64,000 bases of DNA. Source: an uncultured Muribaculaceae bacterium. GTDB lineage: Bacteria; Pseudomonadota; Alphaproteobacteria; Rs-D84. The notes beneath the pieces were generated by a model. It was not told the origin of the DNA and made no database searches. It was given only the letters and a program-made list of their open reading frames with translations. The stretch is taken from positions 1,253-65,252 of the forward strand of contig CAZUED010000002.1 in NCBI GenBank assembly GCA_964619545.1, given 5' to 3'. A program made the translations under genes and the position numbers. Below are positions 6,119-43,324 of the stretch, in pieces. Position 1 is the stretch's first letter. Each line of letters begins with the position of its first letter.

Positions 6119-6208
6119 TCAAATGGTTATTTTTTATTTCGTGCGAAATAATTTTTCGTCTTGCCCGAATCGGTGGGTTTGGGTATCTTTTGCCCAAGGA
6201 AGGTTAAA

Positions 6209-27788: not shown

Positions 27789-28820
27789 TTAAATCAGGTG
27801 GAATTTATAAACCAAGGACAAAGATACCGAATTATCCCTGCCATGCATCAATCCATCCATTTCATTAGAATTTATTTTTTTATAGGCATAAGAAAGTTGC
27901 AAAGATAAATTTTCTATAAAGTTATAACCAACAAATGCCGAGTATTCATATTCATGTATTTTTGATTTATATGGCTCGGATGGCTCAGGTGCTTTATATT
28001 GGGTTTTAATATATTCATATCCCAGCCCAAAGTAAAAATGAATGCTTTTAGGAAAATAAGTGTAGTTAAAGGTAAAACCATATAAGTCTTTGTCTTGATA
28101 GTTTTTTTCAGTATTAAAGTATCTGTAAAATGGGGTCAATCTTAAAACATGTTTTTCATTCAAGTATAATCGGTTTATTAAAAATACAGAATAAACGTAC
28201 CTATTTGTTTCATCGGTTATATTTGAATTATATTCGCGCTTTTCAATTTCAGTGTCCAAAGTGGTATTAAAATTGTTAAAGAAAGAATGGTTTATTTTTA
28301 TTAATGCCCCAAAACCATTGAAAAGCTTTCTGTGGTAAGACCATTCGTCACCATATAAAAACTTTGCAGAAATTTTTGTGTTTTTATCAGGCATTAAAAA
28401 ACTGGGCCCAGTTTGTAATTTAAAATAAAAATCATCAAGTGTCTTATATTGCTTGTAATCACGATAAGTTCCATCAAAAATTGTATCCCAAACGGTATAA
28501 TTAGTAAATTGAAGGACGTTAACCAAATATAATTTGTTCATGGTATAATTGTCATCGTTTGTATTATTAAGAACAAGATTATCTTCATAGTAAAGTGGGT
28601 TTTGTGTATAGGTAAAAGCGGAATTAAAATACCCATATAAATGGATTAGCTTTTGTTTGTCTTCGATATATGATTCTGGAAGTTTATATTTTAATACACC
28701 TTTGTTTCTATAGTATCTGTAATCAATCTCATCACCATCAATATGTTGTGGAACATGATTTGCAAATGCAGAAAAGCAAGGTATAGTAAATAAAAATAAA
28801 TAAATTGTTATTTTTCTCAT
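27789..28820 (-). CDS. Tyr/Asn-rich putative outer-membrane or secreted protein (AT-rich, possibly horizontally acquired)
   Basis: Signal peptide MRKITIYLFLFTIPCFSAFA. Abundant Y/N/F with alternating-hydrophobic beta-strand pattern near the C-terminus (SVSLSLVYKF). GC content is clearly below that of the flanks. Confidence 0.5.
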   Translation of the reverse strand: MRKITIYLFLFTIPCFSAFANHVPQHIDGDEIDYRYYRNKGVLKYKLPESYIEDKQKLIHLYGYFNSAFTYTQNPLYYEDNLVLNNTNDDNYTMNKLYLVNVLQFTNYTVWDTIFDGTYRDYKQYKTLDDFYFKLQTGPSFLMPDKNTKISAKFLYGDEWSYHRKLFNGFGALIKINHSFFNNFNTTLDTEIEKREYNSNITDETNRYVYSVFLINRLYLNEKHVLRLTPFYRYFNTEKNYQDKDLYGFTFNYTYFPKSIHFYFGLGYEYIKTQYKAPEPSEPYKSKIHEYEYSAFVGYNFIENLSLQLSYAYKKINSNEMDGLMHGRDNSVSLSLVYKFHLI

Positions 28821-28836
28821 AAATTAGAACTTTTGG

Positions 28837-29430
28837 TTAAAAAGTATCCCACCAGTTTCTGAAAGGATTTCTAGTTTTAAATAGTTTTTCATCATCCGAA
28901 CCATAAGAGCCCTGACGAGTATTGCTAATGCTTGTACTGCCACCCCCATTATCACCTGACCCACCCCCGTTATTATTACTGCCACCGGCATTTCCAACAT
29001 CTTTATCATTTCCTTGGTTTCCAGGGCCAGTGTTTCCAACCCCACCGCCACTATTTCCATTAGAATTTCCAGCGCCAGAATCTGTAATTACATTGGATGA
29101 GTTACCACCGGCATTACTGCTGCTGGAATTATCAGATGATGAACTGGATGAAGAAGAGTTATCATTTGCACTTGATGATGAGTTACTACCAGCATTACTG
29201 CTGCTGGAATTATCAGATGCTGCGCTGGATGCAGCAGAATTACCACCAGCATTACTATTAGAGTTTGCATTAGATGATGAATTACCACCTGCGTTGCTGT
29301 TGCCATTAGAGCTGTTGGATGCCGCGTTTGAAGACGCTGAATTGCCATTACCATTGTTTGTAGCAATACTTGTGTTCGAGATAAATAAAGCTGTTAAACA
29401 TGATAGAAAAATAGGGTAAATTTTTTTCAT
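28837..29430 (-). CDS. Ser/Asn/Gly-rich low-complexity secreted protein
   Basis: Signal peptide MKKIYPIFLSCLTALFISNTSIA followed by about 150 aa of N/S/G/A repeats (NSSSSN, GGNSS...), ending in NWWDTF. The DNA contains degenerate tandem repeats, and large ORFs also appear in the other two frames, a sign of low-complexity repeat sequence. The minus strand is chosen because of the signal peptide. Confidence 0.45.
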   Translation of the reverse strand: MKKIYPIFLSCLTALFISNTSIATNNGNGNSASSNAASNSSNGNSNAGGNSSSNANSNSNAGGNSAASSAASDNSSSSNAGSNSSSSANDNSSSSSSSSDNSSSSNAGGNSSNVITDSGAGNSNGNSGGGVGNTGPGNQGNDKDVGNAGGSNNNGGGSGDNGGGSTSISNTRQGSYGSDDEKLFKTRNPFRNWWDTF

Positions 29431-30764: not shown

Positions 30765-30797
30765 CCCAAAAAAAAGCGCCCAAGGCGCGATTTTTTA
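30765..30797 (-). terminator. Rho-independent terminator downstream of the 174-aa gene
   Basis: GCGCC-CAA-GGCGC hairpin flanked by A8 and T6. On the minus transcript it is followed by a U-run. Confidence 0.65.
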
Positions 30798-31319
30798 ATA
30801 ACCCCCAACACAGCCCAGATAAAAATTACCCGAGCATTCTATAAAATTTTGGAATTTTGTTTGGTTTTTTCCAGTAAACAAGGCCAAAATAGTACCCGAT
30901 TCTGTCGCCAACATATCCGATACACTGACCCCAAAGCTGGTTGCTTTCTTGAAAAAGCCAGGCGTTGGAAAGATTTCCGCTGCAAAAAGTTTGTTCTGTT
31001 CCTTTGATTGAAGACGTTGTTCCTTTGCAATCACCATTAAAGTACAATCTTTGGATAATGAAATTTTCTCGCATATTTTTGCCTGACCACCCAATAGTTC
31101 CCCCCACCAACCAGATGTTCCAGAAAATACGGGATAATAAAGAAACTCATCAGGTGAATTCTTGAAAAAATCGGCCATTTCAAATTCCCCAGATACAACA
31201 CGGGGCATTTCACCATGTCGATCAGAAATTATTCGGCGCGCAGACTGGTATGCGTCCGAATCGCGAGCCCTTGACTTGGGCCAGAATAGTGACGGGGAAC
31301 TTAAAGTTTGATAACTCAT
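30795..31319 (-). CDS. Hypothetical soluble protein (174 aa) downstream of membrane paralog P1
   Basis: Clean ORF with no signal peptide, no TM and no recognisable motif. Co-directional with P1 and followed by its own terminator. Confidence 0.45.
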   Translation of the reverse strand: MSYQTLSSPSLFWPKSRARDSDAYQSARRIISDRHGEMPRVVSGEFEMADFFKNSPDEFLYYPVFSGTSGWWGELLGGQAKICEKISLSKDCTLMVIAKEQRLQSKEQNKLFAAEIFPTPGFFKKATSFGVSVSDMLATESGTILALFTGKNQTKFQNFIECSGNFYLGCVGGY

Positions 31320-31427: not shown

Positions 31428-32795
31428 TTACTTTTTTATTTCCTGCCACCACTTTTTCATATTGTCAGTGATTTTTTTCAGGTTATCTTTAGTATCTTTA
31501 TAAAGCTGGTCTGGTATTTTTACATTACCAAATAATGCCCCGGCCAATGCCGGTATGGCGTTCATAAACATCGCCAAAAACAGACCCAGCATAACAATAG
31601 TTATCAGACTTCCATTATTCATCATCAGTCCATCTATTAAAATATGTGAATCATTTTGCGCCAGTGCTGTCTGCAGGGCGCTGGCGCCTTGCCATTTACT
31701 AAACGCTGCGTTCAAGAATAATACCGAAAATGCAGTAAAAATCCCGACCATTGCAATGCCCAAAGTATTTTGGATTACTTGGTCTATAATTATCTGGATG
31801 TTTTTTTTGCCATCGGGCAAAATCATCCAAGGCTTTCCACTGACTGGATCTTGGAATAACCATGCCAGCAGCATCAACGGCAGCATAACCAGATTCATTC
31901 CCAGTTGGATAAATGTTTCCAGAAAGTAAAGCGGAACAGGCAGCAAAGCAAAGAAAAATAAAACTATAATTAAAAGCCCTGCCAAAAACATTGCTACATT
32001 AGGGAAAATTGGAATGCCGAAAATCAGCTTGTGCATATGTTGATCATTGAAAGACATATTCATAATTGTCCAGCCAGCAGTCATACCCAGGCCGGTCATC
32101 TGATGAATCTGACCAACCTGGCATGCCAGATTATGGCGCAACTTTGGTGAAAAAGCCCCATCAGTTGCGGCGCTTTTATCCGCGCTGGTCGGGTCCATAA
32201 CGGCAGTTGCGACCAGGCAGGATTCAAAAGAATACTCGTTGTCGGTACCTGCTGCGAACTTTCCATCCACCGCATGCGAAAGCGATAATCCTACATTAAA
32301 AATAGGCTCTATCGCGACATTAGTGATAAAGCGCGGAACTGGCATAGCCAGCAGTAATACAACAAAAGTCAGTTTTACCAGGTGTGTGCCCAACTTTCCT
32401 GAAAATCCCCATGCGTCTGGGCTTTTTGGTGTGCCCTCGATTCCCAGGTATCCTTTCAGGACTTCCCATCCAAAATATACAGCGGTCAGTCCAAATGCCA
32501 AAGGAATGCAGACAGCACCGATTGCAGAATAAATGCGTGGCAGAATGTTTGATATAACCAACATAATGTCGCCCATCATGCCACAAGACCAGCAGCTGGA
32601 AAAAAAGGAAAGCGCATCCGCCATATTTACCGGCGCCATAGAGCGATAGATAGAAAAGCCGGCTATTGCGACGCCGCCCCCAATGGCTCCGATGGCCAAT
32701 GGCGCAATTGCCCCAGCAGAAAGGGGCATGAAAGAAAGAAAGAGTATCCAAAATTTTTTAAGTCTGGTCACAACAGAATTATACCATAATTTCAT
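31428..32795 (-). CDS. Polytopic membrane protein, paralog 1 of a five-member family (VirB6/TrbL-like topology)
   Basis: About six TM helices, a large central hydrophilic loop after TM2 containing MPVPRFITNVAIEP, and a K-rich C-terminal tail. The N-terminal CWSCG motif aligns with the CWSCP of paralog 3. The ORF is open up to a TTG at 32819. The first ATG is 32795. Paralog alignment suggests the mature N-terminus may begin near MADALSFFSSCWSC (about 32624). Confidence 0.6.
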   Translation of the reverse strand: MKLWYNSVVTRLKKFWILFLSFMPLSAGAIAPLAIGAIGGGVAIAGFSIYRSMAPVNMADALSFFSSCWSCGMMGDIMLVISNILPRIYSAIGAVCIPLAFGLTAVYFGWEVLKGYLGIEGTPKSPDAWGFSGKLGTHLVKLTFVVLLLAMPVPRFITNVAIEPIFNVGLSLSHAVDGKFAAGTDNEYSFESCLVATAVMDPTSADKSAATDGAFSPKLRHNLACQVGQIHQMTGLGMTAGWTIMNMSFNDQHMHKLIFGIPIFPNVAMFLAGLLIIVLFFFALLPVPLYFLETFIQLGMNLVMLPLMLLAWLFQDPVSGKPWMILPDGKKNIQIIIDQVIQNTLGIAMVGIFTAFSVLFLNAAFSKWQGASALQTALAQNDSHILIDGLMMNNGSLITIVMLGLFLAMFMNAIPALAGALFGNVKIPDQLYKDTKDNLKKITDNMKKWWQEIKK

Positions 32796-32822
32796 CTGGC
32801 TTTTTATGCTATAATCCAAAGA

Positions 32823-34094
32823 ATGAAAAAAGCTCTTGTATTTTTTCTGGTAACGGCTTTCTGTTCGTTGGTATCGGTCCAGGCCAATGCGGCCTGGAGT
32901 ATTGTGGATTCGTTGGACATTTCGCCTTTTGTTCCAATTGTTTTGGACGCAATGATGTCGGTCGCTATGGCAGGTTATGAATTTTTTGTGGGTAAAGGTG
33001 ATGGAATTATTTACTTGTTTGTTTGGGGTTGGTTGGGTTGGTTTATCGCTTTATACCTTGTAAAAATGTATTTTCCACAAAATTGGTTGGACTTTTTCGG
33101 GATGAAGGGTGGACAGATGTGGAACAAACCATCTGCACTGAAGATTTCTGAAGATGTATTAAAGCCTTGCATTCGTGGCGTAATTGCAGCAGCGTTGTTG
33201 CTTCCCATAAAGCCGCAATACATTACAGGAATTATAGTTGATCCTTTCTTGCAATTTGGTGCGCTTTATACGCAAAGCATTTCTGACAATGTAAATCAGA
33301 TGAATTTAAGCGCTCCTGTGCAGAAAGAAAAAGTCATGTGTCCACCGGAAATTATTGATAAAGGATATATCTCGGCCGCCAGCTGCCAGTTCTTGGTTCA
33401 GCCTGTCGCAGAAATAACGCATGCAAACAATCAGGTTATAAAACGCGGGTTGGGTTTTGTTACCGCTGGATTGGCTGGCCTGATGACTTTGATTCCGCAC
33501 GGCGGTGGGGACATTATGAATTTGGTAACAGGTATTTTCTTGGTATTTGCATTTGTCGCCAGCAATTTCTTTATGGCCCTGTTGATAATTCAAGGAATTT
33601 TTGAATTTGGTATGGCGCTGATAATGTATCCGTTCAAGGTTTTAATGTTTGTTGCAAAAAATTCCAAAGATTGGGTAAATCCATGGCCCGCATTCGAAGG
33701 AATTATAAAAAGCCTGAAAAAACTAGTAATAACAATGATTGCTTGCGCGTTTGTTTTGGCGATAAATTTGGCAGCGATAAAGGCTTTGTTTAACTTTAAT
33801 CAATCAGCATTTGTTGTGGCTGCTGGTGGCAGTGCGTCCAGCAATGTTCCGGTTGTGGCGGCTGGCATCAATGGATTTGGGCAACACTCTATAATATGGC
33901 TGTCTGCAATGCTGACATTCTTTTTAATGTTCAAGATTTTCGAGCTGACCAAAAAGCAGTTATTGGATTATACAGGATCTGGTTCGGACGCTTTGTATAA
34001 AAAAGCAACCGGTGACGCCAAAAACGTATGGAGCAAAACAAACGAGTGGGGCCGCGGCGCGGCCAAGGTATTTGGCTGGATTAAGAAAAAATGA
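32823..34094 (+). CDS. Polytopic membrane protein, paralog 2 (signal peptide; VirB6/TrbL-like topology)
   Basis: Signal peptide MKKALVFFLVTAFCSLVSVQANA. TM pair, then the loop LPIKPQYITGIIVDPFLQFGALYTQSI, then 3-4 TM helices, then a K-rich tail (...GWIKKK). Shares the NSKDW...P.F motif with paralog 3. Confidence 0.65.
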   Translation: MKKALVFFLVTAFCSLVSVQANAAWSIVDSLDISPFVPIVLDAMMSVAMAGYEFFVGKGDGIIYLFVWGWLGWFIALYLVKMYFPQNWLDFFGMKGGQMWNKPSALKISEDVLKPCIRGVIAAALLLPIKPQYITGIIVDPFLQFGALYTQSISDNVNQMNLSAPVQKEKVMCPPEIIDKGYISAASCQFLVQPVAEITHANNQVIKRGLGFVTAGLAGLMTLIPHGGGDIMNLVTGIFLVFAFVASNFFMALLIIQGIFEFGMALIMYPFKVLMFVAKNSKDWVNPWPAFEGIIKSLKKLVITMIACAFVLAINLAAIKALFNFNQSAFVVAAGGSASSNVPVVAAGINGFGQHSIIWLSAMLTFFLMFKIFELTKKQLLDYTGSGSDALYKKATGDAKNVWSKTNEWGRGAAKVFGWIKKK

Positions 34095-35305
34095 ACGGAA
34101 TGATTGATTCTTTTGTTTCAAATTCAGTGCAGTGTTGGAGCTGCCCTGTCTTTGATCGCCTGTTCCAAATAATTTCTGCCGCGACATCTGCGGTTTATGG
34201 CAAGTTGTCTGTTCTGGCGGCTGTTTTGCTTTGTGTTTTTGTTGCGTTCTATGTTTTGTATTCGGTTATAACAAATCTGCGTGATGTAAAAAACATTGAT
34301 CCGACTTATCAGACTTACTTGAAGCCGGTAATGATAAACTCGCTGTTTGTAATCGCTATTTTGGGATTGGGGGTTATGGTGCCGCGGTTTATCACCCGGG
34401 TCAGTTTTGAGCCGGTTGCAGATATGACGCTTATCTATACCCAATCCATGCTGAATACAAACATGTCAGATGTAGCGCAAAAGGTTCAATACAATCCTGA
34501 AAAAATGCCTGATGACGGATTTTATCGTCCAGAGCTTCGCGATAAAATAATTCAGCTGATGAAAACCAGTATCACCCAATTCCAGTCAATGGTAAGGCTG
34601 GGGATGACTATTATGGATAATGCGTTTTCTTGGGATGTGTTGCTGGGGGTGGGTGCGCTGGTAAAACACATAATACTATTTTTTATGGGGCTTTATATTG
34701 CATGGGCCTTTTTCAAGCTGTTTATAAAATTCTGTTTTTATTTTGTTGATGTTGTAATAGACATGACTTTCTTTGCATTTTTCTTCCCATTTATGTTGGT
34801 CTTTTGGGTTTTCAGAAATTCTAAAAGTGCGGATTGGATAAAAAGTATGGGTGATAAAATAACACCAGCATTTTTCCAAAACTTAATAAACTCTATCGTG
34901 TCATTGGCGACGGTTGTTATAACCTATGTTGTGATAATAACCATAATGGCAAAGTTCCTGACGGGCTTTGGCAGCGGCAGCGCCGAAATGACGCGTCAAA
35001 TTATGGACGGCAGCATATTTGCAGGCGACCTGTCTGATGATAATCTGGCAATGATTACTTTGGGTGGCACATTGGTATTGGTCTATGTGGTTCAGTATCT
35101 GGCAGACAATATAAAGAATGTATCCAGAGAAATAACAGAAACTTTTGGAGTCAAAGACAGACATGAAGCCGGTGATTCTTTGGGTGAAGATGTATTAAAA
35201 ATAGGCAAAAACACATTTGACTTTGCGAAAAGCACAGGCAAAATTATTATGGCCGCAGCGACAGGTAAAGAGGCCGATAAAAAAGAAGAGTCAAGCAGCA
35301 AGTAA
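34091..35305 (+). CDS. Polytopic membrane protein, paralog 3
   Basis: N-terminal CWSCPVFDRLF motif. TM1-TM2, then loop VPRFITRVSFEPVADMTLIYTQSM, then four TM helices. C-terminal tail ...GKEADKKEESSSK. ATGA overlap with paralog 2. Confidence 0.65.
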   Translation: MNGMIDSFVSNSVQCWSCPVFDRLFQIISAATSAVYGKLSVLAAVLLCVFVAFYVLYSVITNLRDVKNIDPTYQTYLKPVMINSLFVIAILGLGVMVPRFITRVSFEPVADMTLIYTQSMLNTNMSDVAQKVQYNPEKMPDDGFYRPELRDKIIQLMKTSITQFQSMVRLGMTIMDNAFSWDVLLGVGALVKHIILFFMGLYIAWAFFKLFIKFCFYFVDVVIDMTFFAFFFPFMLVFWVFRNSKSADWIKSMGDKITPAFFQNLINSIVSLATVVITYVVIITIMAKFLTGFGSGSAEMTRQIMDGSIFAGDLSDDNLAMITLGGTLVLVYVVQYLADNIKNVSREITETFGVKDRHEAGDSLGEDVLKIGKNTFDFAKSTGKIIMAAATGKEADKKEESSSK

Positions 35306-36765
35306 TGTTAAAAAACAAACTTATCTTGACAGCGGTAAAGGCGGCGATGTGGATTATCGCGATTGGCATTGGCATCTGGTATTTGTCGGCCAGTATCAAT
35401 GGCGATTCTATTACTTACGCCAGCATGAATAGTTTCTTGCAGACCACAGGTGCATGCAAGGGCGCTGTTTGCGACATCAGTGCAACGAATGGATGCTTTC
35501 TTTGCCCGTATGTAAATCAATTGTTTAATGTAATTGGTACTGCGACAAATGATTTTTGGGATGCACTGGTTGGCAACCTATGGGTATTGATTGCCCTGGG
35601 CTTTATAATTTTTCTGTTTGTTCATACCTGGAAAACAATGGCAAAGGCGAATAAAGAAAACATTGCCGTGGGCGCAGGGGAACGTAAATTTGATTTCAAG
35701 GAATGGTTTGACGGAGTATGGAAGCAAGCTGCACGGGTTTTGGCAGTCGGCGCATTTTTGGGCGCGATAAGTTTTGGTGGCACAGGAGTTCTGCGAGCAG
35801 TATCAGACATCACCATACGCCCTGTGATGTATGTCGGGGCAGAATTGGCAATGGCTGCAACTGGCGAAGTTGGCGCGGCCCATTGCCCAGCGCTGGAATC
35901 GATGAGCGAATCAAATGTGGTTGGTCCTGCGTTAAAACCTTTTATGTGCGTGGTTGGAAATGCCAGCAATGTTATTCTGGCGGGTGCATCTGGCGGATTT
36001 GCATTGATGAATTTTTCATGGATGGGAATGGGCGGCGGGCTTTTTACTTGGATGGCTGGATTGGGGCTGGTCATAATGTTTTTAGTTATCGGATTTGGTT
36101 TGTTCTTTGACATTCTGAATGTAGTTTTCAGATTGGTATTTATAATTATTTTCTTACCCATAATTATCGCCAGCTATGCGTATGAAAATGTTTGGGGAGT
36201 ATTAAAGGGGGCAATCGGCAAATCGGTCGAGATGTTGGTAAATTGCGCGGTCAGGGTTGCCGCAATTACACTGAAAGTTTTAATAATTTACGCGGTTGTT
36301 TCTGTTGCAGCGGACGAGTATTTCCCAGGGCCGACAGATGGGTACTCGGCAATACTTCCGCCAGGTTTTGCTGGAATGCAAACCGCGCAAAATTCTGAAA
36401 ACCAAGTCGTTGCCCAAGTGTTTGCGAATTGCGAAAAAGTGTCAGTTGTGAATGGCGCGATGGACAAGAATTTATTCAAGGCTTGTTTTGACCGCCAAAA
36501 AGCAACGGCTGAAATTATGCATCCGGGGGCATTTGATTTTATGGGCAATGGTTGGGAATTCTTTATGCTGATGCTGGGTATATTCTTGTTGTATTTCTAT
36601 GTAGTTCAGAAAAAGATAGATGAAGTTTTAGTGGTGGGTAAAGACGGCAAAGACCCCATATTCAACATTGGCAGCCAGTTCAAGGAATTTGGTAAAAAAG
36701 TATGGGACATCCCAGCCCAGCTGACCAAGAAGATAACGGACGCAACGGAAAAAAATAAGGAATAA
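35305..36765 (+). CDS. Polytopic membrane protein, paralog 4
   Basis: N-terminal anchor followed by a Cys cluster (CKGAVC...CFLCPYVNQLF), aligned with the CWSCP region of paralog 3. Loop RAVSDITIRPVMYVGAELAMAATG. Multiple TM helices. Tail ...KKITDATEKNKE. Start overlaps the stop of paralog 3. Confidence 0.65.
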   Translation: MLKNKLILTAVKAAMWIIAIGIGIWYLSASINGDSITYASMNSFLQTTGACKGAVCDISATNGCFLCPYVNQLFNVIGTATNDFWDALVGNLWVLIALGFIIFLFVHTWKTMAKANKENIAVGAGERKFDFKEWFDGVWKQAARVLAVGAFLGAISFGGTGVLRAVSDITIRPVMYVGAELAMAATGEVGAAHCPALESMSESNVVGPALKPFMCVVGNASNVILAGASGGFALMNFSWMGMGGGLFTWMAGLGLVIMFLVIGFGLFFDILNVVFRLVFIIIFLPIIIASYAYENVWGVLKGAIGKSVEMLVNCAVRVAAITLKVLIIYAVVSVAADEYFPGPTDGYSAILPPGFAGMQTAQNSENQVVAQVFANCEKVSVVNGAMDKNLFKACFDRQKATAEIMHPGAFDFMGNGWEFFMLMLGIFLLYFYVVQKKIDEVLVVGKDGKDPIFNIGSQFKEFGKKVWDIPAQLTKKITDATEKNKE

Positions 36766-38069
36766 TGGCTTCGCTTCGTTTACATCTTAAAAAAATAATT
36801 GCACCAAGTATGGTGGCGGTCATATTTGCTTTTTGCACCTTGTTTTTTACAGGTTCATCTTATGCCGAAGCGAATGTTCCAACCACCAGCGACATTGGAA
36901 ATTATGGAGTTTGGGCGACCGAGCACAATCGGCAGCTTTTAATAAACAATCTTTCTACGGACATAAGTTCTTTCCAAGGCAATACCCAAAAGGCGATTGT
37001 TGGCGACTATGTTCCAGTAGAGGCGCGCGTGGGCAAAGCACTTATCGGCGCACTGGATCGGGTAGGCCAGGCATTGCAGCGCAGTCTTTTTGACTTTGTC
37101 CGAGTTCTGTTGGTTGCATTGTTTGCTTTTTGGTTGGCGTTCGAAGCATATAATTTAATTCAGTCAAAGGGTGATTCTAAAAAGCTGGCGCTGGACATTG
37201 CAAAAAAAACTATGCTGATTTCAATTTGGATTTGGGTGTTGGGAAATAATCCTGGTCAAATTTTTATGACAATTTTTGGACCGATCATTTCAGTTGGCAG
37301 CTATGCATCAGATTTAATACTGAATTCTATTACCAATGCTGCTGGGACCAGTTTACCAGATACTTGCAATGCTATACGAGGCTTCATAGGCTCGACCGAT
37401 AATAACTATACTGCTGATTTGTTGTGCATGCCGACCAGATTGTCCGGATTCTTTTATACCTGTGTGGCGGCAGGATTCAAATGGATGGCGGCGGGAATTG
37501 GTGAAAGCGCGCTTACCTTTGTTGCCGGCGCGGTCTTTGTTGTGATTTTCTCGATAAATATATGGAAGTTCGCATTACTGGCATTGGGTGTAATAACTGA
37601 TTTGTTCTTGGCGATTTTGCTTCTGCCATTTACGGCTATCCAAGAATGCTTTGGCAAAGGGACAAATCTGAAAGGTGTCGCTGGAAATATATTCAAGGCT
37701 TTTGCAGGAATTTTCAAGTCCGCCAGTTTAAGTGAGCAAATTATGCGTTTTATTAAGGCAGTGATATATTTTGTTGCCTTGGCATTGATGGCGGCAATTG
37801 GTGCAGCTTTGCTGGGCGGGGTAGTCAGCACTGATTTAGCGTCTGCGACGCCATCGGTACAAAGCGATAGTTTTATGTCGGTTTTGATAGTCGGGTGTCT
37901 GGTTGCGTATATGGTATCAAAATCATCAAAGTGGGCAGAAAATTTTGGTGGCAAAATAGATGATTCGTTCGGCAAGCAGGTTCAGGGCGATATGAAAAAG
38001 CTATGGGACAATACAAAAAAGCAGGTTTCAGACTGGCGGAAAATTTATCAGGAACAAAAGAAAAAATAG
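36765..38069 (+). CDS. Polytopic membrane protein, paralog 5 (signal peptide)
   Basis: Signal peptide, then a 100-aa periplasmic N-terminal region, then TM helices. Tail ...KKQVSDWRKIYQEQKKK. Start overlaps the stop of paralog 4. Confidence 0.6.
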   Translation: MASLRLHLKKIIAPSMVAVIFAFCTLFFTGSSYAEANVPTTSDIGNYGVWATEHNRQLLINNLSTDISSFQGNTQKAIVGDYVPVEARVGKALIGALDRVGQALQRSLFDFVRVLLVALFAFWLAFEAYNLIQSKGDSKKLALDIAKKTMLISIWIWVLGNNPGQIFMTIFGPIISVGSYASDLILNSITNAAGTSLPDTCNAIRGFIGSTDNNYTADLLCMPTRLSGFFYTCVAAGFKWMAAGIGESALTFVAGAVFVVIFSINIWKFALLALGVITDLFLAILLLPFTAIQECFGKGTNLKGVAGNIFKAFAGIFKSASLSEQIMRFIKAVIYFVALALMAAIGAALLGGVVSTDLASATPSVQSDSFMSVLIVGCLVAYMVSKSSKWAENFGGKIDDSFGKQVQGDMKKLWDNTKKQVSDWRKIYQEQKKK

Positions 38070-38097: not shown

Positions 38098-39174
38098 ATG
38101 TTATCTGGCTTGTTATCAAATCTTGGTTATGAAATGGGTGGAGGCGCGCTGTTTGCCTGTGGCTTTATCGGGGCATTTTTAATTATGCTGGCGTTCGGGC
38201 GCAGATATATCAATGCTATGCGCCGTTGGCAGAAAAAGGGTCAGCCAATCAGCGAAAATGTGCCAGCTTCCCATTTGGCAAAGGCTGGAACCCCCACAAT
38301 AGGTGGCGGTCTGATGTTGGCGGCAATACTGGTATCCAGTATTCTGTTTATGGATTATTATAATCCTGCGCCGTGGATTGCATTGGGTGCATTGGTGTGG
38401 TTTGGCGCAATCGGATTTGCAGATGATTATAAAAAAGTAACCAGCCAAAGCGTCAAGGCCTCGAACGGCTTGTCGCCGAAAATGCGACTGATTCTAGAAG
38501 GGGTCGGCGTGATAGCATTGGCGTATTGCGCAGATGCGATTATGCCTTTTTATCTGCCATCATATTCTGTAGTATTCCCTGGTGGATATATTTTCCCTAT
38601 TGGAATTTTGTATTTTGGATTTGCTTATTTTGTAATAGCTGGGACGGCAAACGCTGCAAACATTACCGATGGTTTGGATGGTATGCTGTCAAAGATTTAT
38701 CTGCCGATTTTAGTTGTTATGTTGATTGCTTTATTTGGCGCAACAAGGGTCGGATTTATTCCTAACTCTTTATTACTGCCAGACGCAGCCGGATTGTTCC
38801 CAGTATTAGGTGCGGCATTTGGAGCATTGGTTGGATTTTTATGGTTTAATTCATCGCCAGCATCAATTTTCATGGGTGATACCGGCAGCCTGGCACTGGG
38901 TGGATTTATAGGCACCATTGCGATGTTATTAAAAGTTGAAATAGTAATGGGCGTGGCCAGTTTAATGCTGGTTGCGATTTTGCTGTCCAGCTTTATCCAA
39001 ACCTTTGTTTATAAACTGACCAAGAAAAATGGGGTTGGAAAAAGGGTTTTCTTGCGCGCACCACTGCATCATCATTTGGAAGAACTGGGATTGCCCGAAT
39101 CAAAAATCGTGGAAAGATTTTTTATAATGTCGGTTTTGTTTAGCGGTCTGGCCTTGTTATTACTGAGGTTGTAA
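38098..39174 (+). CDS. mraY: Phospho-N-acetylmuramoyl-pentapeptide transferase MraY
   Basis: Conserved DD and DGLDG motifs, and the HHH motif (LHHHLEELG). 10 TM helices. Confidence 0.9.
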   Translation: MLSGLLSNLGYEMGGGALFACGFIGAFLIMLAFGRRYINAMRRWQKKGQPISENVPASHLAKAGTPTIGGGLMLAAILVSSILFMDYYNPAPWIALGALVWFGAIGFADDYKKVTSQSVKASNGLSPKMRLILEGVGVIALAYCADAIMPFYLPSYSVVFPGGYIFPIGILYFGFAYFVIAGTANAANITDGLDGMLSKIYLPILVVMLIALFGATRVGFIPNSLLLPDAAGLFPVLGAAFGALVGFLWFNSSPASIFMGDTGSLALGGFIGTIAMLLKVEIVMGVASLMLVAILLSSFIQTFVYKLTKKNGVGKRVFLRAPLHHHLEELGLPESKIVERFFIMSVLFSGLALLLLRL

Positions 39175-39175
39175 A

Positions 39176-40321
39176 ATGATAAAACGCGGCGAAGAAAGCA
39201 CTCTTACCAGCTGGTATTTTGAAATAGATTGGCGTCTGTTCTGGTGCGTCATAGTAATGTCTTTGGTAGGATTGCTGGCGATGGTGTCGGCGGGAAGCGT
39301 CGCGGCCGAGCGGTTAAATCCCCCCCAGCCCTGGCACTTTTTCTTGGTAAAGGCAATTCCGCTTTACATAATTGGAATAATAACTTTGTTGGTGTCGTCT
39401 TTCTTGGGTAAGCGCCAGGTTCTGACTATTGCGGTATTGAATGTATTGGTCTGTTTATTGCTTTTGGCGGCAACGTTAGTTATGCCAGCTGCGGTCAAGG
39501 GAAGCGCCCGTTGGGTTGATTTGGGTTTTGCATCCGTTATGCCCAGCGATTTAATGAAGCCCGGTTTTATAATTATAACTTCTTGGTTTTTGGTGCGAAT
39601 GGAAAAATTGTCACCAGGTGATATATTTTTTGCAAAAAGGGCATGGAAATGGGACGCTTGGCCGGCGTATTTGGCAGTATTCTTGCCGATGCTGCTTATT
39701 ATTCTGACGCATCCGGATTTCGGATCTTTCGTGCTTTATTTGGCTGTGTTTTCAGCAATGATTTTTCTGGCTGGACTGCCGATGTATTTTATTCCCATTT
39801 TTGCAGGACTGGGGGCAGGGGCGTTTGTCTTTGCATTCCTGACAATGTCACATGTGCGACTGCGAGTTCTGGGCTTCCTGGGTTTGGCCGGTGGTGGTGA
39901 TAATTATCAGATTAGAAAATCAGTCGAGGCCGTACAACATGGTGGCTTGTTCGGTCGCGCAGAAGATAGTTTTATAAAGCAATCATTACCTGATGCACAT
40001 ACAGACTTTGTGTTTTCAGCGATTGCAGAAGATTCAGGTGCGATAATAGCATGTATTCTTTTGCTGGGCTTTTTATACGTATTAAAACGTCTTGCGGTGA
40101 ATGCAATGAATGCCAAGGACAAGTTAGTGTTTTATGCATGTGGTGGTCTGATGGCCTTGTTTGGCGCCCAAGTATGTATAAACTTGATGTCTGCGCTGGG
40201 ATTGTTTCCACCCAAAGGAATGACACTGCCGTTTATTTCGTATGGTGGATCCTCTTTTGTTGCATTTTGCCTTGCGTTTGGTATGATTTTGGCGTTGGTC
40301 CGCGAGGACAAATGGAAATAA
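39176..40321 (+). CDS. ftsW: Peptidoglycan glycosyltransferase, SEDS family (FtsW/RodA)
   Basis: SEDS topology and a C-terminal PFISYGGSS motif. Position between mraY and murG. Confidence 0.85.
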   Translation: MIKRGEESTLTSWYFEIDWRLFWCVIVMSLVGLLAMVSAGSVAAERLNPPQPWHFFLVKAIPLYIIGIITLLVSSFLGKRQVLTIAVLNVLVCLLLLAATLVMPAAVKGSARWVDLGFASVMPSDLMKPGFIIITSWFLVRMEKLSPGDIFFAKRAWKWDAWPAYLAVFLPMLLIILTHPDFGSFVLYLAVFSAMIFLAGLPMYFIPIFAGLGAGAFVFAFLTMSHVRLRVLGFLGLAGGGDNYQIRKSVEAVQHGGLFGRAEDSFIKQSLPDAHTDFVFSAIAEDSGAIIACILLLGFLYVLKRLAVNAMNAKDKLVFYACGGLMALFGAQVCINLMSALGLFPPKGMTLPFISYGGSSFVAFCLAFGMILALVREDKWK

Positions 40322-40339
40322 ATAAAATCGGAGGTCTAA

Positions 40340-41401
40340 ATGAAAATCTGGATAGCCACAGGCGGAACAGGTGGACATATTTTCCCAGCACTCAGCGTGG
40401 CTGAGGAATTAGTTCGTCGTCATCACAGCGTTATAATTTCCAGCGATAGCCGTGGTATGGCTATGGTAAAAAAGAACAAGCCTGGGCGTGCCGGTACAGC
40501 ATTTATTTGGGCGGCTGGTGTAGGTGCGAAATCAAGTGTTCAACAAGCAATAGCGCTGTTCAAGATTGCAGCATCGGCAATCGCCTTGACTTTGCGGTTT
40601 ATGATTTTCAGACCAAACAGAGTAGTGGCGTTTGGTGGCTATTCGTCCGTGCCGGTTGTTTTAGCAGCAAAAATGTGGCATGTTCCAATCTTGCTGCACG
40701 AGCAGAATGCGCACATAGGTCGCGCAAATAAATTCACAGCACGCTGGATAAACACCCTTATGATAAGTTTTCCAAAAGTAAAAGGAATCGACGAATCAAA
40801 AACAAAAATTGTTTATACTGGATTGCCAGTGCGTAAAGAGTTTTTATCATCATCTCTTGTTGCGCCATCATCTTTTAATCTTTTGGTAACAGGTGGCAGC
40901 CTGGGCTCGCAAATTCTGGATGATGTTGTCCCAGATGCAGTTATGAAATTATCGGCTGCGATGCGGAAAAAATTATTCATAACCCAGCAAACGCGTCCTG
41001 AAAATGTTGCGCGGCTGCAAAGGTTTTATGCCAGTAATGGAATCAAGGCAAATGTTGTCGGATTTATAAACGATATGGCGGCGGCCCTTTCGTCGGCCGA
41101 ACTGGTTATCGGTCGCGCTGGCGCCAGCACGATTGCAGAATTGCAGGCCATTGGTCGACCAGCAATTCTTGTGCCATTGGGAATAAATCCAGATCAGGCA
41201 GCAAATGCCGAATCTTTTGCATCAACCGGTGGAGCGCTGGCAATAGAACAGAAAAGCTTTACAGCAAAATGGTTGTCAGCAGAATTAGAGGAACTTTTTG
41301 GCAATCCAGCAAGATTAAAGAAAATGGCTGACAAGGCAAAACTGACAAACAATGCTGTTAAAAATATAGTCGAAGAAGTTCTGAAAACAGAAAAAAATTA
41401 A
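40340..41401 (+). CDS. murG: UDP-GlcNAc:lipid I GlcNAc transferase MurG
   Basis: GGTGGH N-terminal motif (TGGTGGHIFPALSVAEEL) and the GT28 C-terminal domain. GGAGG SD. Confidence 0.85.
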   Translation: MKIWIATGGTGGHIFPALSVAEELVRRHHSVIISSDSRGMAMVKKNKPGRAGTAFIWAAGVGAKSSVQQAIALFKIAASAIALTLRFMIFRPNRVVAFGGYSSVPVVLAAKMWHVPILLHEQNAHIGRANKFTARWINTLMISFPKVKGIDESKTKIVYTGLPVRKEFLSSSLVAPSSFNLLVTGGSLGSQILDDVVPDAVMKLSAAMRKKLFITQQTRPENVARLQRFYASNGIKANVVGFINDMAAALSSAELVIGRAGASTIAELQAIGRPAILVPLGINPDQAANAESFASTGGALAIEQKSFTAKWLSAELEELFGNPARLKKMADKAKLTNNAVKNIVEEVLKTEKN

Positions 41402-41508: not shown

Positions 41509-41985
41509 ATGCCAAAGAAAGAATTTGTACATCTTATAGAACAGAATATGCTTATTTTGGCATGGTTGACTGACAGGCTGAAGATAAGCAATAGTGTATT
41601 TTTTCGCCATCCGCGTCAGCAGCTAGAGCTGTTAGTGCGCTTGCATTTAGGCGGACGCGCACGATTAAAAGACATATCAGAAAGAGAATGCACGCCCACA
41701 TCAAATTTGTGTGCGACTTTTCGTATTCTGGAAAGCCAGGGACTTGTGCGCCGTGAAATTGATGAATTTGACAGACGCAATACTTGGTATTCGGTTACGT
41801 CTAGGGGCGCGAAACTGGCAATTCAGACCATAGAATTATTCCGTAAGCGAATAATGGAAATTTTTTCCGGATTAAACCCAGCAGACGAGGTCAGATTAAC
41901 CAGCGCTTTGCGAACTATCAATGAATTAGTAACGAAAATGAAAGAAGAAAATATAAATTCGAATGTGAAAGAAAAAAGGAAATAG
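41509..41985 (+). CDS. MarR-family transcriptional regulator
   Basis: Winged-helix region (RLHLGGRARLKDISERECTPTSNLCATFRILESQGLVRRE...DRRNTWYSVTSRG). Confidence 0.7.
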   Translation: MPKKEFVHLIEQNMLILAWLTDRLKISNSVFFRHPRQQLELLVRLHLGGRARLKDISERECTPTSNLCATFRILESQGLVRREIDEFDRRNTWYSVTSRGAKLAIQTIELFRKRIMEIFSGLNPADEVRLTSALRTINELVTKMKEENINSNVKEKRK

Positions 41986-41986
41986 G

Positions 41987-43324
41987 ATGAAGATTAAAAA
42001 AAGTTTTTTTATATGTTTGTTTTTGCCGTTTGTTTCTTTGGTATCGGTGGTATTTACGCCATGTTATGCGCGCGATCTTTCTTTTAATGATGCAGTAAAG
42101 ATGATAGAGAAAGAATCAAACGATATAAAAAGCGCCGATGCAAATGTTAAAAAAGCAGATGCACAACTGGATGCTGCAAAATCTAATCGCTGGTTACATG
42201 TTGATGGTACGGCCAGTTATATGAATTTGGTAAATGTAAAAAAACCAAGCAGTCCAAATGGGGTCGAACTGCCACCAGAACTTGGTGGATTAATTTCTAA
42301 TCTTACTGGTTCATCGGCTAACGTAACAATTCCCGATAACATTTTTATGGCTGGGGTCACCGTCAGTCAGCCAATATATACTTTTGGGAAAATAGGTAAT
42401 GCAGTGGATGCTATGCGGAATGTGGTTGATATGTCAAAACTGGGTAAAGAGCTGACACAGCGCGAGGTTCGATATGCTGCTGCGCAGCTTTACTGGACTG
42501 CTAAGATGGCAGATGGGGCAGTCCAGATTGCTGAAAAAACTTTGAATGAGTCATATGCATCGCGTAAGAAATTAACATCTACTGGACGACCAGGGCGCGC
42601 AAATTTGGTAAAGATAGAGGCCGACATCGCATCTAAGGAAATCAATCTTTCGGATGCTAAATTTAATCGCGACACTGCAAATCGTATGTTGAAAATAATG
42701 GCAGGAATTGATGTAGACGAAGAGCTGGTTTTAACAGATGATTTCCCATCGTCTTTTGGTACGTTGCAAGCTGGAAAAATGGAAAGTAATCCTGAATGGG
42801 AAATTTTGGAGAATCAAGTGCAAATGTATGAAAAAAATGCAAGTGCTAAGCGCGCCGGATACTTACCTACATTAGCTGCTACTGCATCTTATAATTATGT
42901 AGCAACTCATGATGATGCACAGATGTGGCATGGAAATAAAGCACAGAATGCTTATTGGGGGCTGGCGCTGAGCGTTCCGATTTTTGACGGCGGCTTAAAT
43001 CGTGCCAATGCGACGGCTGCTGCAATGGATGCAGAAGTTGCACGTCAAGATCTGGATAAGTCTAAAAAACTGAAGACAGAAGAATATAGAACTGCGATAG
43101 AAAAATACGATCATCTGCGGGGAAATTTGGCTAACTTGGAAAATGCGCGAAGCTTGGCACAAAAGGCATATGGATATAGTCTTGAAAGATTCGCAGCTGG
43201 TCAAACCAGCGCAGTCGAAGTTTCCGAAGTTTCCGCCGCCGCCGCTCAAATGGAAATGGCGGTCTTGAATGCAAAATACAACATTGTGTTGGCCCAGGAA
43301 CAGATAAAGAAATTGAACAAATGA
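41987..43324 (+). CDS. TolC-like outer-membrane efflux channel
   Basis: Signal peptide. Two OEP repeats with coiled-coil segments. Sits in an operon with the MFP and RND pump. Confidence 0.75.
   Translation: MKIKKSFFICLFLPFVSLVSVVFTPCYARDLSFNDAVKMIEKESNDIKSADANVKKADAQLDAAKSNRWLHVDGTASYMNLVNVKKPSSPNGVELPPELGGLISNLTGSSANVTIPDNIFMAGVTVSQPIYTFGKIGNAVDAMRNVVDMSKLGKELTQREVRYAAAQLYWTAKMADGAVQIAEKTLNESYASRKKLTSTGRPGRANLVKIEADIASKEINLSDAKFNRDTANRMLKIMAGIDVDEELVLTDDFPSSFGTLQAGKMESNPEWEILENQVQMYEKNASAKRAGYLPTLAATASYNYVATHDDAQMWHGNKAQNAYWGLALSVPIFDGGLNRANATAAAMDAEVARQDLDKSKKLKTEEYRTAIEKYDHLRGNLANLENARSLAQKAYGYSLERFAAGQTSAVEVSEVSAAAAQMEMAVLNAKYNIVLAQEQIKKLNK

Follow-up and report, generated by a model that had tools for sequence, protein, structure and literature searches.

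As polytopic inner-membrane proteins of type IV secretion systems (T4SSs), VirB6 proteins form the base of the central stalk or channel. The Anaplasmataceae keep four VirB6 paralogs, not five. In R388, by comparison, VirB6 is pentameric (PMC9259494). Rickettsia species carry five tandem paralogs (RvhB6a-e) with about 80% amino acid divergence, a VirB6/TrbL domain that averages 413 aa, and T4SS genes that are scattered over five islets (Gillespie et al. 2009, PMC2653234); duplicated B4, B8 and B9 and the lack of B5 are further hallmarks of this rvh system.

We analysed a 64-kb stretch of DNA (the window) from the Rs-D84 / Ca. Enterousia lineage of gut Alphaproteobacteria, in which five adjacent genes, P1 to P5, encode proteins that are annotated as "hypothetical" in every database. 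Their coordinates and sizes agree with an earlier note on this DNA, which described five adjacent open reading frames of 404-486 aa, one on the minus strand and four on the plus strand. The features discussed here are:

30795..31319, minus strand: N174, a 174-aa soluble protein, directly downstream of P1 and on the same strand as P1
31428..32819, minus strand: P1, VirB6-like paralog, 463 aa from a TTG start
32772..32822, no strand: P1-P2 divergent intergenic region, ~51 bp given a P1 GTG start at 32771
32823..34094, plus strand: P2, VirB6-like paralog, 423 aa
34091..35305, plus strand: P3, VirB6-like paralog, 404 aa
35305..36765, plus strand: P4, VirB6-like paralog, 486 aa
36765..38069, plus strand: P5, VirB6-like paralog, 434 aa
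61676..63889, plus strand: VirD4/TraG-type type IV coupling protein, 737 aa (Pfam PF02534 at 4e-52, PF12696, PF10412)

We propose, with a probability of roughly 0.65, that P1-P5 are VirB6/TrbL paralogs forming one hetero-oligomeric inner-membrane platform or channel of a scattered, rvh-like T4SS that includes VirD4.

Because P1 orthologs begin at the GTG at 32771, this codon is probably the true start of P1, giving a protein of 447 aa. By inspection, the intergenic region that results has a TATAAT hexamer on each strand, a scan of it for promoter consensus was not above background, and the equivalent gap in locus L001 measures 86 bp; this region presumably acts as a promoter shared with P2, from which P1 would be transcribed divergently. 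Stop and start codons overlap between P2 and P3 (ATGA), P3 and P4 (TAATG), and P4 and P5 (TAATG), and P2-P5 are thereby probably translationally coupled; given the overlaps and the shared intergenic region, roughly matched expression of all five genes is expected. The array is flanked by an inositol-monophosphatase/N174 block on one side and by mraY or uvrD on the other (here mraY begins 28 nt after P5). N174 is conserved beside the array on every contig long enough to include it (76 of the 81 Rs-D84 loci, L001-L081), has no Pfam family, and is unrelated to P1-P5 (0.1-0.2% in hhalign). The window also contains comEC and a comFC-like gene.

VirD4 lies 23.6 kb downstream of the array, alone among housekeeping genes, with intact Walker A (APPGTGKT) and Walker B (LFVLDE) motifs. 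Its context is solitary in three genomes; orthologs, about 70% identical, occur throughout the lineage on contigs of the same size as those that bear the array, and in the closed 716-kb chromosome OZ246409.1 VirD4 is ~41 kb from the array. VirD4 is thus a probable functional partner of the array. The earlier statement that no T4SS genes stand beside the array is correct for its immediate neighbours but not for the window; a total absence of other T4SS core genes, which that note held would refute the VirB6 reading, is not what we found, as a conserved VirD4 is present. VirB4, VirB8-B11, VirB2, VirB3 and VirB5 were found neither in the 64-kb window or ~1.7 Mb of Rs-D84 loci, nor adjoining relatives in other lineages. 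Since the sequence covered amounts to ~7% of this genome (plus the same syntenic region in other genomes), and since rickettsial T4SS genes are also scattered, the absence of such genes near the array says little. On our reading, the remainder of the T4SS would be encoded in this genome.

An unlikely though serious alternative accepts the VirB6 homology and holds that the proteins were co-opted and serve no classical T4SS, with neither VirB4 nor an outer-membrane core complex: they might, for example, form a stand-alone inner-membrane channel with VirD4 only, take up or exchange DNA or metabolites, or act in envelope biogenesis. No T4SS is known to lack VirB4, and a coupling protein conserved at ~70% implies a working translocation channel, both of which weigh against co-option. 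On the other side are the lack of VirB4 and VirB8-B11 in all of the sequence covered (the window, the Rs-D84 loci and the relatives' neighbourhoods), the solitary VirD4, the arrays of the same superfamily in five other lineages, which have housekeeping genes around them and nothing recognisable as T4SS next door, and comEC and the comFC-like gene of the window. Co-option would also suit a lineage that lacks the standard importers for sugars, amino acids and peptides (PMC12306168); yet the small fraction of the genome covered, together with the spread of rickettsial T4SS genes over five islets (PMC2653234), counts against it.

Three independent lines support P1-P5 as very distant members of the VirB6/TrbL superfamily, although the sequence similarity shows only through intermediates. 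Pfam PF04610, the family with which the earlier note had linked the paralogs, is matched by none of the five window proteins; no TrbL/VirB6 family was detected in them with Pfam and NCBIfam, no Pfam TrbL among 79 P3 and 74 P1 orthologs, and no confident match to any other family in P1-P5 or the P1 and P3 orthologs. Direct hhalign of each P1-P5 family against plasmid TrbL gave at most 1.1%, and the P3 profile found nothing among PDB sequences; a broader profile reaches TrwI only at E 0.11. By contrast, a profile of 62 relatives from outside Rs-D84 matches a canonical TrbL alignment of 120 sequences at 95.8% (E 6.9e-9, 258 columns) and all five families at 99.1-99.9% (P2, 99.1%; P4, 99.7%; P5, 99.7%), against at most 1.8% for N174 and for six unrelated membrane families (MraY, FtsW, ComEC, KefB, LptF/G and YidC); as these intermediates were gathered with the P3 profile, the matches to P1 and P3 are in part built in, and only those to TrbL, P2, P4 and P5 are independent. 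The P3 profile recovered 74 distant relatives, of which 27 match PF04610, and no other family recurs among them; in P0190 and P0264 the TrbL match falls within the P3-aligned region, and one relative bears the NCBI name "type IV secretion system protein". In structure, both modelled paralogs resemble TrwI/VirB6 most, with nearly the whole TrwI chain covered, and TrwI/VirB6 takes the top three Foldseek places for the P3 model. The earlier note had hesitated between a far-derived branch of VirB6 and a novel family of membrane proteins; the profile bridge and the relatives with Pfam TrbL favour the former.

It is accordingly very improbable that the array represents a new polytopic family unrelated to VirB6, for instance a CysZ/EI24-like anion permease whose likeness is a coincidence of long hydrophobic helices. 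Such a reading could draw on the missing direct Pfam TrbL match and on weak EI24/CysZ matches in 20 of the 79 P3 orthologs (best 7e-7), but the EI24 match scores 30 bits against a Pfam gathering score of 32 and is absent from the window P3 and from 74/74 P1 orthologs, and the TrbL bridge is significant where the six unrelated families are not.

The five proteins are distant paralogs, anciently diverged and individually conserved, and the paralogy that the earlier note had seen is far above chance. BLASTP links P1 to P3 at 3e-14, with weaker links among the remaining paralogs, and hhalign of the ~80-member ortholog alignments, over 290-350 columns, gives 98% for P1-P3, 95.5% for P2-P5, 94.6% for P1-P5, 93.5% for P1-P4 and 90% for P4-P5. 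P1-P5 occur in identical order in all 80 full-length loci of the lineage, with exactly five members per locus, the window included. That they are interchangeable duplicates of one VirB6, redundant or antigenically variable and kept for variation or dosage, and not distinct subunits of one assembly, is hardly credible even though some Anaplasmataceae VirB6 paralogs have very large variable extensions (PMC7648143): every genome carries a separate ortholog of each of the five, in most genomes roughly 40-60% identical, against only about 20% between paralogs (21-28% over the longer alignments), none of the 80 loci has lost or gained a copy, paralog-specific features (CxxC presence or absence, distinct Cys pairs) are 100% conserved, and duplicates would be lost in genomes of 0.7-1 Mb.

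Hydropathy shows one plan in P1-P5: two transmembrane (TM) segments are followed by a hydrophilic loop (73-107 aa), then come a long double-TM stretch and a further pair of TM segments, and the C-terminal tail, 32-66 aa long, is rich in K/R (Lys-rich in P1). The architecture claimed earlier thus stands, except that an N-terminal signal or anchor is not universal: P1 and P4 have an anchor, P2 a cleavable-looking signal peptide and P5 a signal peptide, but P3 has neither. Most of the quoted motifs are present as described: CWSCG (P1), CWSCP (P3), CFLCP (P4), the loop-start motifs PRFITNV, PRFITRV, PQYITGI and ITIRPV, and NSK..DW (NSKDW in P2). The motif given as IYTQS[IM] in P2 and P3 is better written [IL]YTQS[IM], as P2 reads LYTQSI, and the N-terminal Cys motif is confined to P1 (CWxC, C76/C79), P3 (CWSC, residues 15-18) and P4 (C64/C67), where CxxC is 100% conserved; P2 and P5 lack it. 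Cys pairs conserved at 99-100% are found in P1 (C201/C233 in the loop, invariant), P2 (C173/C188 in the loop, 99-100%), P4 (C194/C215 and C376/C394, both invariant) and P5 (C201/C221 in the loop, invariant); P1 W331 and P3 W249 are invariant as well. The pair in the large loop of four paralogs suggests a disulfide.

Each paralog amounts to roughly the core domain of VirB6, and in all but P3 a signal peptide or anchor stands ahead of it. In the likely topology, drawn from hydropathy and cysteine patterns only, the segment ahead of core TM1 (with CWxC in P1, P3 and P4) and the large loop after TM2 (with the invariant Cys pair in four paralogs) would be periplasmic, and the Lys-rich tail cytoplasmic. 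The five proteins most likely form a hetero-oligomer, assembling together into a single inner-membrane platform or channel, possibly a 1:1:1:1:1 heteropentamer in place of the R388 homopentamer; the four paralogs of the Anaplasmataceae and the four members of a related array, L091, make a strict heteropentamer rule doubtful. Substrates would be handed to this platform by the VirD4 coupling ATPase, which is chromosomal and conserved, and the platform would belong to a genomically scattered, rvh-like T4SS. Rs-D84 bacteria are predicted to be obligate symbionts or parasites without standard transporters (PMC12306168). If so, such a metabolically dependent gut bacterium could act on partner cells via a T4SS.

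P1-P5 share a polytopic helical architecture with R388 TrwI/VirB6 (PDB 7O3V, 8RT9) and canonical VirB6/TrbL (Pfam PF04610), as well as a conserved Trp after the central hydrophobic hairpin (TrbL W212, aligned to P1 W331). They differ in that five heterologous copies replace the one gene that yields the R388 homopentamer, in a larger central loop with Cys pairs, in the N-terminal CWxC, which canonical TrbL lacks, and in that their genes belong to no virB or trb operon. Legionella DotA, part of the Dot/Icm type IVB system, is far larger (solved chain of 857 residues, PDB 9NGY), no Dot/Icm genes were seen, and the VirD4 found here matches type IVA TraG/VirD4 Pfam models. Comparable arrays, of the same superfamily and likewise unannotated, are the tandem sets of three to five members in other uncultured Alphaproteobacteria (L085 and L090 with five each, L091 with four, L093 and L094): they too lie in a chromosomal housekeeping context, and CWxC is nearly invariant in them, but their proteins are mostly larger (229-955 aa, with other relatives up to about 1000 aa) and some match Pfam TrbL, from sub-threshold to significant, whereas P1-P5 do not.

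The analogy that the earlier note drew with the Rickettsiales is apt (PMC2653234): both have five tandem VirB6-family genes, each conserved across genomes, whose products differ greatly from one another (about 80% divergence in rvh; 21-28% identity over the longer alignments in P1-P5); the 404-486 aa of P1-P5 match the rvh VirB6/TrbL domain; and both are chromosomal, the host being an alphaproteobacterium of reduced genome whose T4SS genes are dispersed and not in one operon. Yet RvhB6 proteins have 674-1154 aa with long flanking extensions and are detected by PF04610 and COG3704, whereas P1-P5 are core-only and are not; rvhB6 genes come after rvhB3-rvhB4, whereas P1-P5 stand between the inositol-monophosphatase/N174 block and mraY or uvrD; one copy in the array is divergently transcribed, unlike rvhB6; the CWxC motif of P1, P3 and P4 is not reported for RvhB6 in the text covered; and the host order, Rs-D84, is outside the Rickettsiales in GTDB. 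The array represents a new and compact form of the multicopy VirB6 arrays that Rickettsiales carry.

The five adjacent genes for VirB6-like membrane proteins (P1 to P5) and the gene for the soluble protein N174, directly downstream of P1, are arranged as follows in the window, which has a G+C content of about 41%:

30795-31319, minus strand: N174, 174 aa, soluble, without a Pfam family
31428-32819, minus strand: P1, ORF of 463 aa
32823-34094, plus strand: P2, ORF of 423 aa
34091-35305, plus strand: P3, ORF of 404 aa
35305-36765, plus strand: P4, ORF of 486 aa
36765-38069, plus strand: P5, ORF of 434 aa

Positions and sizes of the five ORFs agree exactly with those reported in the earlier note, and the motifs it quoted are found in the sequences. 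A hydropathy scan gives P1-P5 a common plan: two transmembrane (TM) segments are followed by a hydrophilic loop (73-107 aa), a hydrophobic stretch of 40-60 residues corresponding to two helices, another pair of TM segments and finally a tail rich in K/R (32-66 aa). The single architecture previously claimed for all five thus holds for this core but not for the N-terminus, which carries an extra membrane anchor in P1 and P4 (hydropathy scan), is signal-peptide-like in P2 and P5, and is neither in P3.

Two sets of cysteines stand out in the ortholog alignments (about 80 sequences per paralog). Those of a CWxC/CxxC motif are 100% conserved in P1 (C76, C79), P3 (C15, C18) and P4 (C64, C67), and the motif is not present in P2 or P5; it follows the extra anchor in P1 and P4, and lies on a short, nearly uncharged N-terminal tail in P3. 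The second set forms pairs within the large loop, conserved at 99-100%: C201/C233 in P1, C173/C188 in P2, C194/C215 in P4 and C201/C221 in P5, with no such pair in the P3 loop; P4 has a further pair, C376/C394, in its second loop. Because of these paired invariant cysteines we infer that the large loop after TM2 is periplasmic, like the so-called P2 loop of VirB6; with that loop periplasmic and the K/R-rich tail cytoplasmic, the CxxC segment just ahead of core TM1 would be periplasmic too. The K/R counts, the hydropathy and the loop cysteine pairs of four paralogs are compatible with a VirB6-like topology.

The paralogs are only distantly similar to one another, with BLASTP matches that are weak yet connected (P1-P3, 3e-14; P2-P3, 3e-5; P2-P5, 6e-5; P3-P4, 3e-4) and identities of 21-28% over the longer alignments. 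When the ortholog alignments were compared pairwise by hhalign, probabilities over 290-350 columns reached 98% for P1-P3, 95.5% for P2-P5, 94.6% for P1-P5, 93.5% for P1-P4 and 90% for P4-P5. N174 was considered as a sixth member of the family and rejected, as it scored no more than 0.2% against any of the P1-P5 families. Because of this difference (90-98% vs at most 0.2%), P1-P5 are one superfamily made up of five old, non-redundant branches.

A survey of one genome per GTDB species yielded 80 loci carrying the array, from gut, rumen and termite metagenome-assembled genomes (MAGs), Candidatus Enterousia among them; genomes of this order, Rs-D84, measure 0.7-1.0 Mb (PMC12306168). The gene order, N174 and P1 on the minus strand and P2, P3, P4 and P5 on the plus strand, is identical in every locus long enough to judge. 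HMM searches recovered exactly five superfamily members from the window and from every one of the 80 full-length loci, the sole exception being a truncated 5-kb contig. Ortholog identity is mostly 40-60% for each paralog and at most 95% in the closest genomes. In 76 of the 81 Rs-D84 loci (L001-L081) N174 is the neighbour of P1 and shares its strand, with 44-94% identity; in L011 it lies on the opposite strand. For P3, the protein collection holds 889 homologs, all unnamed and all without a Pfam domain, in MAGs that bear the label Alphaproteobacteria or 'Rickettsiales bacterium'. Several records (L002, L003, L007, L011, L021/L088, which is the closed chromosome OZ246409.1, and L074) have the title 'uncultured Muribaculaceae bacterium' or 'Bacteroides fragilis'; their gene content, with the VirB6-like array, mraY and a VirD4 that are 50-95% identical to the window, indicates that these titles are wrong.

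Within the array, P2 and P3 meet in an ATGA overlap, and P3/P4 and P4/P5 in TAATG overlaps. Such stop/start overlaps are the classic signature of translational coupling, and P2-P5 carry it. Orthologs of P1 start where GTG 32771 stands in the window; with this start the divergent P1-P2 gap is about 51 bp and contains TATAAT on both strands, and a generic promoter scan did not rise above background. The array's neighbours are an inositol monophosphatase gene, N174 and mraY-ftsW-murG, the last starting 28 nt past P5. A functional tie to mraY-ftsW-murG was rejected, because most of the other genomes carry mraY at the far side of the array, inverted, or outside the 10-kb flank. In the window mraY, ftsW and murG form a fragment of the dcw cluster (38098-41401, plus strand) with murD missing between mraY and ftsW, and the array occupies the spot where murF would normally precede mraY.

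Other features of the window were recorded alongside. A cluster of parA, parB, gpsA and gidB (rsmG, minus strand) lies at 6161-9327, the cumulative GC skew climbs throughout, and the plus strand holds most genes; because of these three features, the window is suggested to lie near the replication origin on a single replichore. At 28837-29430 (minus strand) a signal peptide heads a 197-aa protein that consists almost entirely of Ser/Asn/Gly repeats; the mirror ORF at 28922-29419 (plus strand) is its compositional shadow, and a beta-barrel outer-membrane protein is encoded next to it at 27789-28820 (minus strand). At 41509-46921 (plus strand) a MarR regulator gene precedes the gene of a TolC-like outer-membrane factor, an ORF of 192 aa that lacks a Pfam family, and the gene of an RND pump of the AcrB type; no membrane-fusion protein was recognised between TolC and AcrB, where one is expected.

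Direct assignment of P1-P5 to a family failed. The earlier note had called for a check of each paralog against PF04610 (TrbL/VirB6); a Pfam scan gave no match at E<1 in any of the five, nor did an NCBIfam scan find TrbL/VirB6 at that threshold. TrbL was not among the families of 79 P3 orthologs (25 of 37 families listed), nor among all seven Pfam families reported for 74 P1 orthologs. Searches of PDB sequences with P3 and an alignment, A1, by phmmer and by profile returned no match, A1 gave no significant hhalign match to a single TrbL, and each P family scored at most 1.1% against 120 canonical P-type TrbL proteins. A weak competing signal came from EI24/CysZ (PF07264), which matched 20 of the 79 P3 orthologs, at best with 30 bits vs a gathering score of 32 (residues 24-209 of the P3 ortholog P0032), and was found neither in the P3 of the window nor in any of the 74 P1 orthologs; with no match above the gathering score, we rejected membership and read these matches as noise from hydrophobic segments.

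Three more sensitive approaches were positive. Structure prediction also drew on a superfamily alignment of search hits. An AlphaFold2 model of P3 (pLDDT 68) has as its top three Foldseek matches TrwI, the VirB6 of the R388 type IV secretion system (T4SS), at probabilities of 0.84-0.87, with unrelated proteins in the top ten at no more than 0.28; the predicted structure thus has the three-dimensional fold of VirB6. A HMMER search with the P3 profile over 1.84 billion representatives finds, besides orthologs, many proteins of 400-1000 aa at E-values of 1e-18 to 1e-3. PF04610 matches 27 of 74 such distant relatives (best 2.9e-8), in which no other membrane family recurs in Pfam; in two of them, P0190 and P0264, the TrbL match falls within the stretch aligned to P3, and one cluster of relatives carries the NCBI name 'type IV secretion system protein'. 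The CWxC motif is nearly invariant in distant relatives too. Finally, the homologous region was cut from 62 relatives outside Rs-D84 and aligned, and this intermediate profile bridges the gap: by hhalign it scores 95.8% (E 6.9e-9, 258 columns across the TrbL domain) against the canonical TrbL alignment and 99.9, 99.1, 99.9, 99.7 and 99.7% against P1, P2, P3, P4 and P5, and plain HMMER with it matches each of P1-P5 in the window (1e-25 to 1e-59). None of the controls MraY, FtsW, ComEC, KefB, LptF/G and YidC exceeds 1.8% with the intermediate, TrbL or P3 profile. With a broad superfamily profile, TrwI ranked second of 177,635 PDB sequences, yet at E 0.11. Through the intermediate profile the conserved Trp of the TrbL motif GxSQWTRE, W212, falls on the invariant W331 of P1 and within a few residues of an invariant or near-invariant Trp in P2, P3 and P4, with none in P5, the register being approximate throughout; canonical TrbL has no counterpart of CWxC in the profile alignment.

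Because structure, exhaustive HMMER search and intermediate profile all agree, we consider P1-P5 very probably members of the VirB6/TrbL superfamily, both structurally and evolutionarily. Of the two possibilities raised earlier, a highly derived VirB6 family or a new membrane-protein family, the TrwI matches, the TrbL-positive relatives and the intermediate-profile bridge support the former. The five are a subfamily beyond the reach of current curated models.

Related arrays, again chromosomal, in tandem and surrounded by housekeeping genes, occur in other uncultured Alphaproteobacteria: five superfamily members in L085 (5291-15968; 770, 781, 857, 474 and 650 aa) and in L090 (1839-9461), four in L091 (7731-15207), and at least three in each of the short contigs L093 and L094. 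In the first three of these the members are mostly larger (229-870 aa) and are nearly all annotated as hypothetical. The nearest paralog is P1 for some relatives, P3 for others and P4 for yet others, so that at least some of the paralogy predates Rs-D84.

When every window ORF of at least 150 aa was scanned for families, all but one were housekeeping or without a Pfam match, the exception being:

61676-63889, plus strand: VirD4/TraG coupling protein, 737 aa (PF02534, 4e-52; also PF12696 and PF10412)

Its Walker A (APPGTGKT) and Walker B (LFVLDE) motifs are intact. It was previously said that no other T4SS genes accompany the array; none adjoins it, but this VirD4 lies 23.6 kb downstream; in OZ246409.1, a closed chromosome, about 41 kb separate the two. 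VirD4 is about 70% identical across Rs-D84, more conserved than the VirB6-like genes, with orthologs on contigs equal in size to those bearing the array, and stands solitary among housekeeping genes in three genomes. In the window it is flanked by yidC and an RNA methyltransferase gene upstream and a pseudouridine synthase gene downstream; directly 3' of it in two genomes come genes for a lipoprotein-like protein, conserved and 422 aa long, and for a member of the LpoB family. In the closed chromosome, about 8 kb upstream of VirD4 (L088, 824-2161, plus strand), a 445-aa protein with the prepilin-like N-terminus GGMLIELLLTLALVAV hints that components of a type II secretion or type IV pilus-like system are present, which are unreported for the lineage. 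The window also encodes a ComEC competence channel (PF03772; 50440-52329, minus strand) and a ComFC-like protein with a double zinc ribbon and a phosphoribosyltransferase domain (19074-19805, plus strand), parts of a DNA-uptake pathway kept in a genome of about 0.9 Mb besides the T4SS coupling protein.

For tblastn we used VirB2-B11/D4 of an Erythrobacter plasmid and TrbB-L/TraG of Bartonella pBHa; in the Erythrobacter operon the protein at the position of VirB6 is soluble, which made this operon unusable as a reference for VirB6. On the window, the 81 Rs-D84 loci (about 1.7 Mb) and seven further loci, both sets recovered VirD4 only. No T4SS genes were found beside VirD4 in three genomes, beside the distant relatives of five lineages, or upstream of the window, and VirB4 and VirB11 were not found within the accessible sequence of the window and the Rs-D84 loci. 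The separation of the array from virB3/virB4 was likewise borne out, since neighbouring genes and tblastn show no virB3, virB4, virB5 or virB8 beside it. A literature search on T4SS in Rs-D84 found nothing relevant.

Five non-redundant proteins of VirB6 fold are thus strictly co-conserved, and translationally coupled, in genomes where an intact VirD4 is retained as well. We hypothesize that P1-P5 co-assemble into one hetero-oligomeric inner-membrane platform, that VirD4 hands substrates to this platform within a scattered T4SS, and that Rs-D84 cells, which are metabolically dependent (PMC12306168), use this system on partner cells. We put the probability of this role at roughly 0.65. The main rival, a VirB6-derived channel working without a classical T4SS, would sit with the failure to find VirB4 and VirB11 in the accessible sequence and less readily with the intact, well-conserved VirD4; we regard it as rather improbable. 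As for the stoichiometry of the proposed T4SS platform, it may be a heteropentamer at the five-fold VirB6 position. A strictly 1:1:1:1:1 assembly seems doubtful, because Anaplasmataceae have four VirB6 copies and L091 has four members. The R388 stalk is a VirB6 pentamer bearing a VirB5 pentamer (cryo-EM, PMC9259494), and exactly five coupled, divergent copies set against this homopentamer make the heteropentamer a concrete and testable hypothesis. Its widest form, in which an obligate heteropentamer at the stalk base is an asymmetric, subunit-specialised channel that also explains RvhB6 and other five-member arrays, with an rvh-like T4SS in Rs-D84, is an unlikely conjecture; we found no literature joining the VirB6 pentamer with the rickettsial VirB6 paralogs.

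A five-gene block annotated as hypothetical in every Rs-D84/Ca. Enterousia genome found, in a lineage without any secretion system described so far, thereby gains a fold as well as a probable role. These bacteria are widespread in human and animal guts, and how they acquire their metabolites is a puzzle. Under the unlikely conjecture above, an rvh-like T4SS, now regarded as a Rickettsiales signature, would also be present in a gut order whose members may be epibiotic, and could be the long-sought route by which these transporter-poor bacteria of 0.7-1 Mb exploit partner cells. The array extends multicopy VirB6 arrays past the recognised Rickettsiales and bears on when and how secretion-based dependence on hosts or partners arose in Alphaproteobacteria; its relevance is to T4SS evolution, to the biology of reduced-genome gut Alphaproteobacteria and to the heteropentamer idea. 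The subfamily is missed by Pfam and NCBIfam, and a new HMM could be built from its signature (CWxC before TM1, P-x-x-I-x5-E-P after TM2, and the loop Cys pairs). The compact, extension-free P1-P5 should also be easier to model or purify than rickettsial RvhB6.

The closest described system is the rvh T4SS (Rickettsiales vir homolog). That multicopy VirB6 is an rvh hallmark, as had been asserted, is stated in PMC11077975, which lists multicopy RvhB6 with duplicated RvhB4, RvhB8 and RvhB9 and no VirB5, and calls rvh a bona fide rickettsial signature. According to PMC2653234, virB6 occurs in Rickettsia in 'an extraordinary five copies', arranged in tandem, diverging by about 80% among themselves and each conserved across genomes, with VirB6/TrbL domains averaging 413 aa within proteins of 674-1154 aa, and T4SS genes spread over five islets. 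The present array has the same copy number, divergence pattern, domain size and scattered context: P1-P5 are multicopy, tandem and mutually divergent, each with an ortholog in 80 loci. They differ in being core-only, at 404-486 aa and without the large flanking extensions of the RvhB6 proteins in that account, which agrees with the earlier remark on their smaller size (404-486 vs 674-1154 aa). They also differ in being undetected by Pfam, in being detached from virB3/virB4 (the rvh array adjoins rvhB3-rvhB4), in having one copy divergently transcribed, in the CWxC motif, and in belonging to another order, Rs-D84. The array is not categorically new; it is a new, compact, previously unrecognised variant of multicopy VirB6 arrays.
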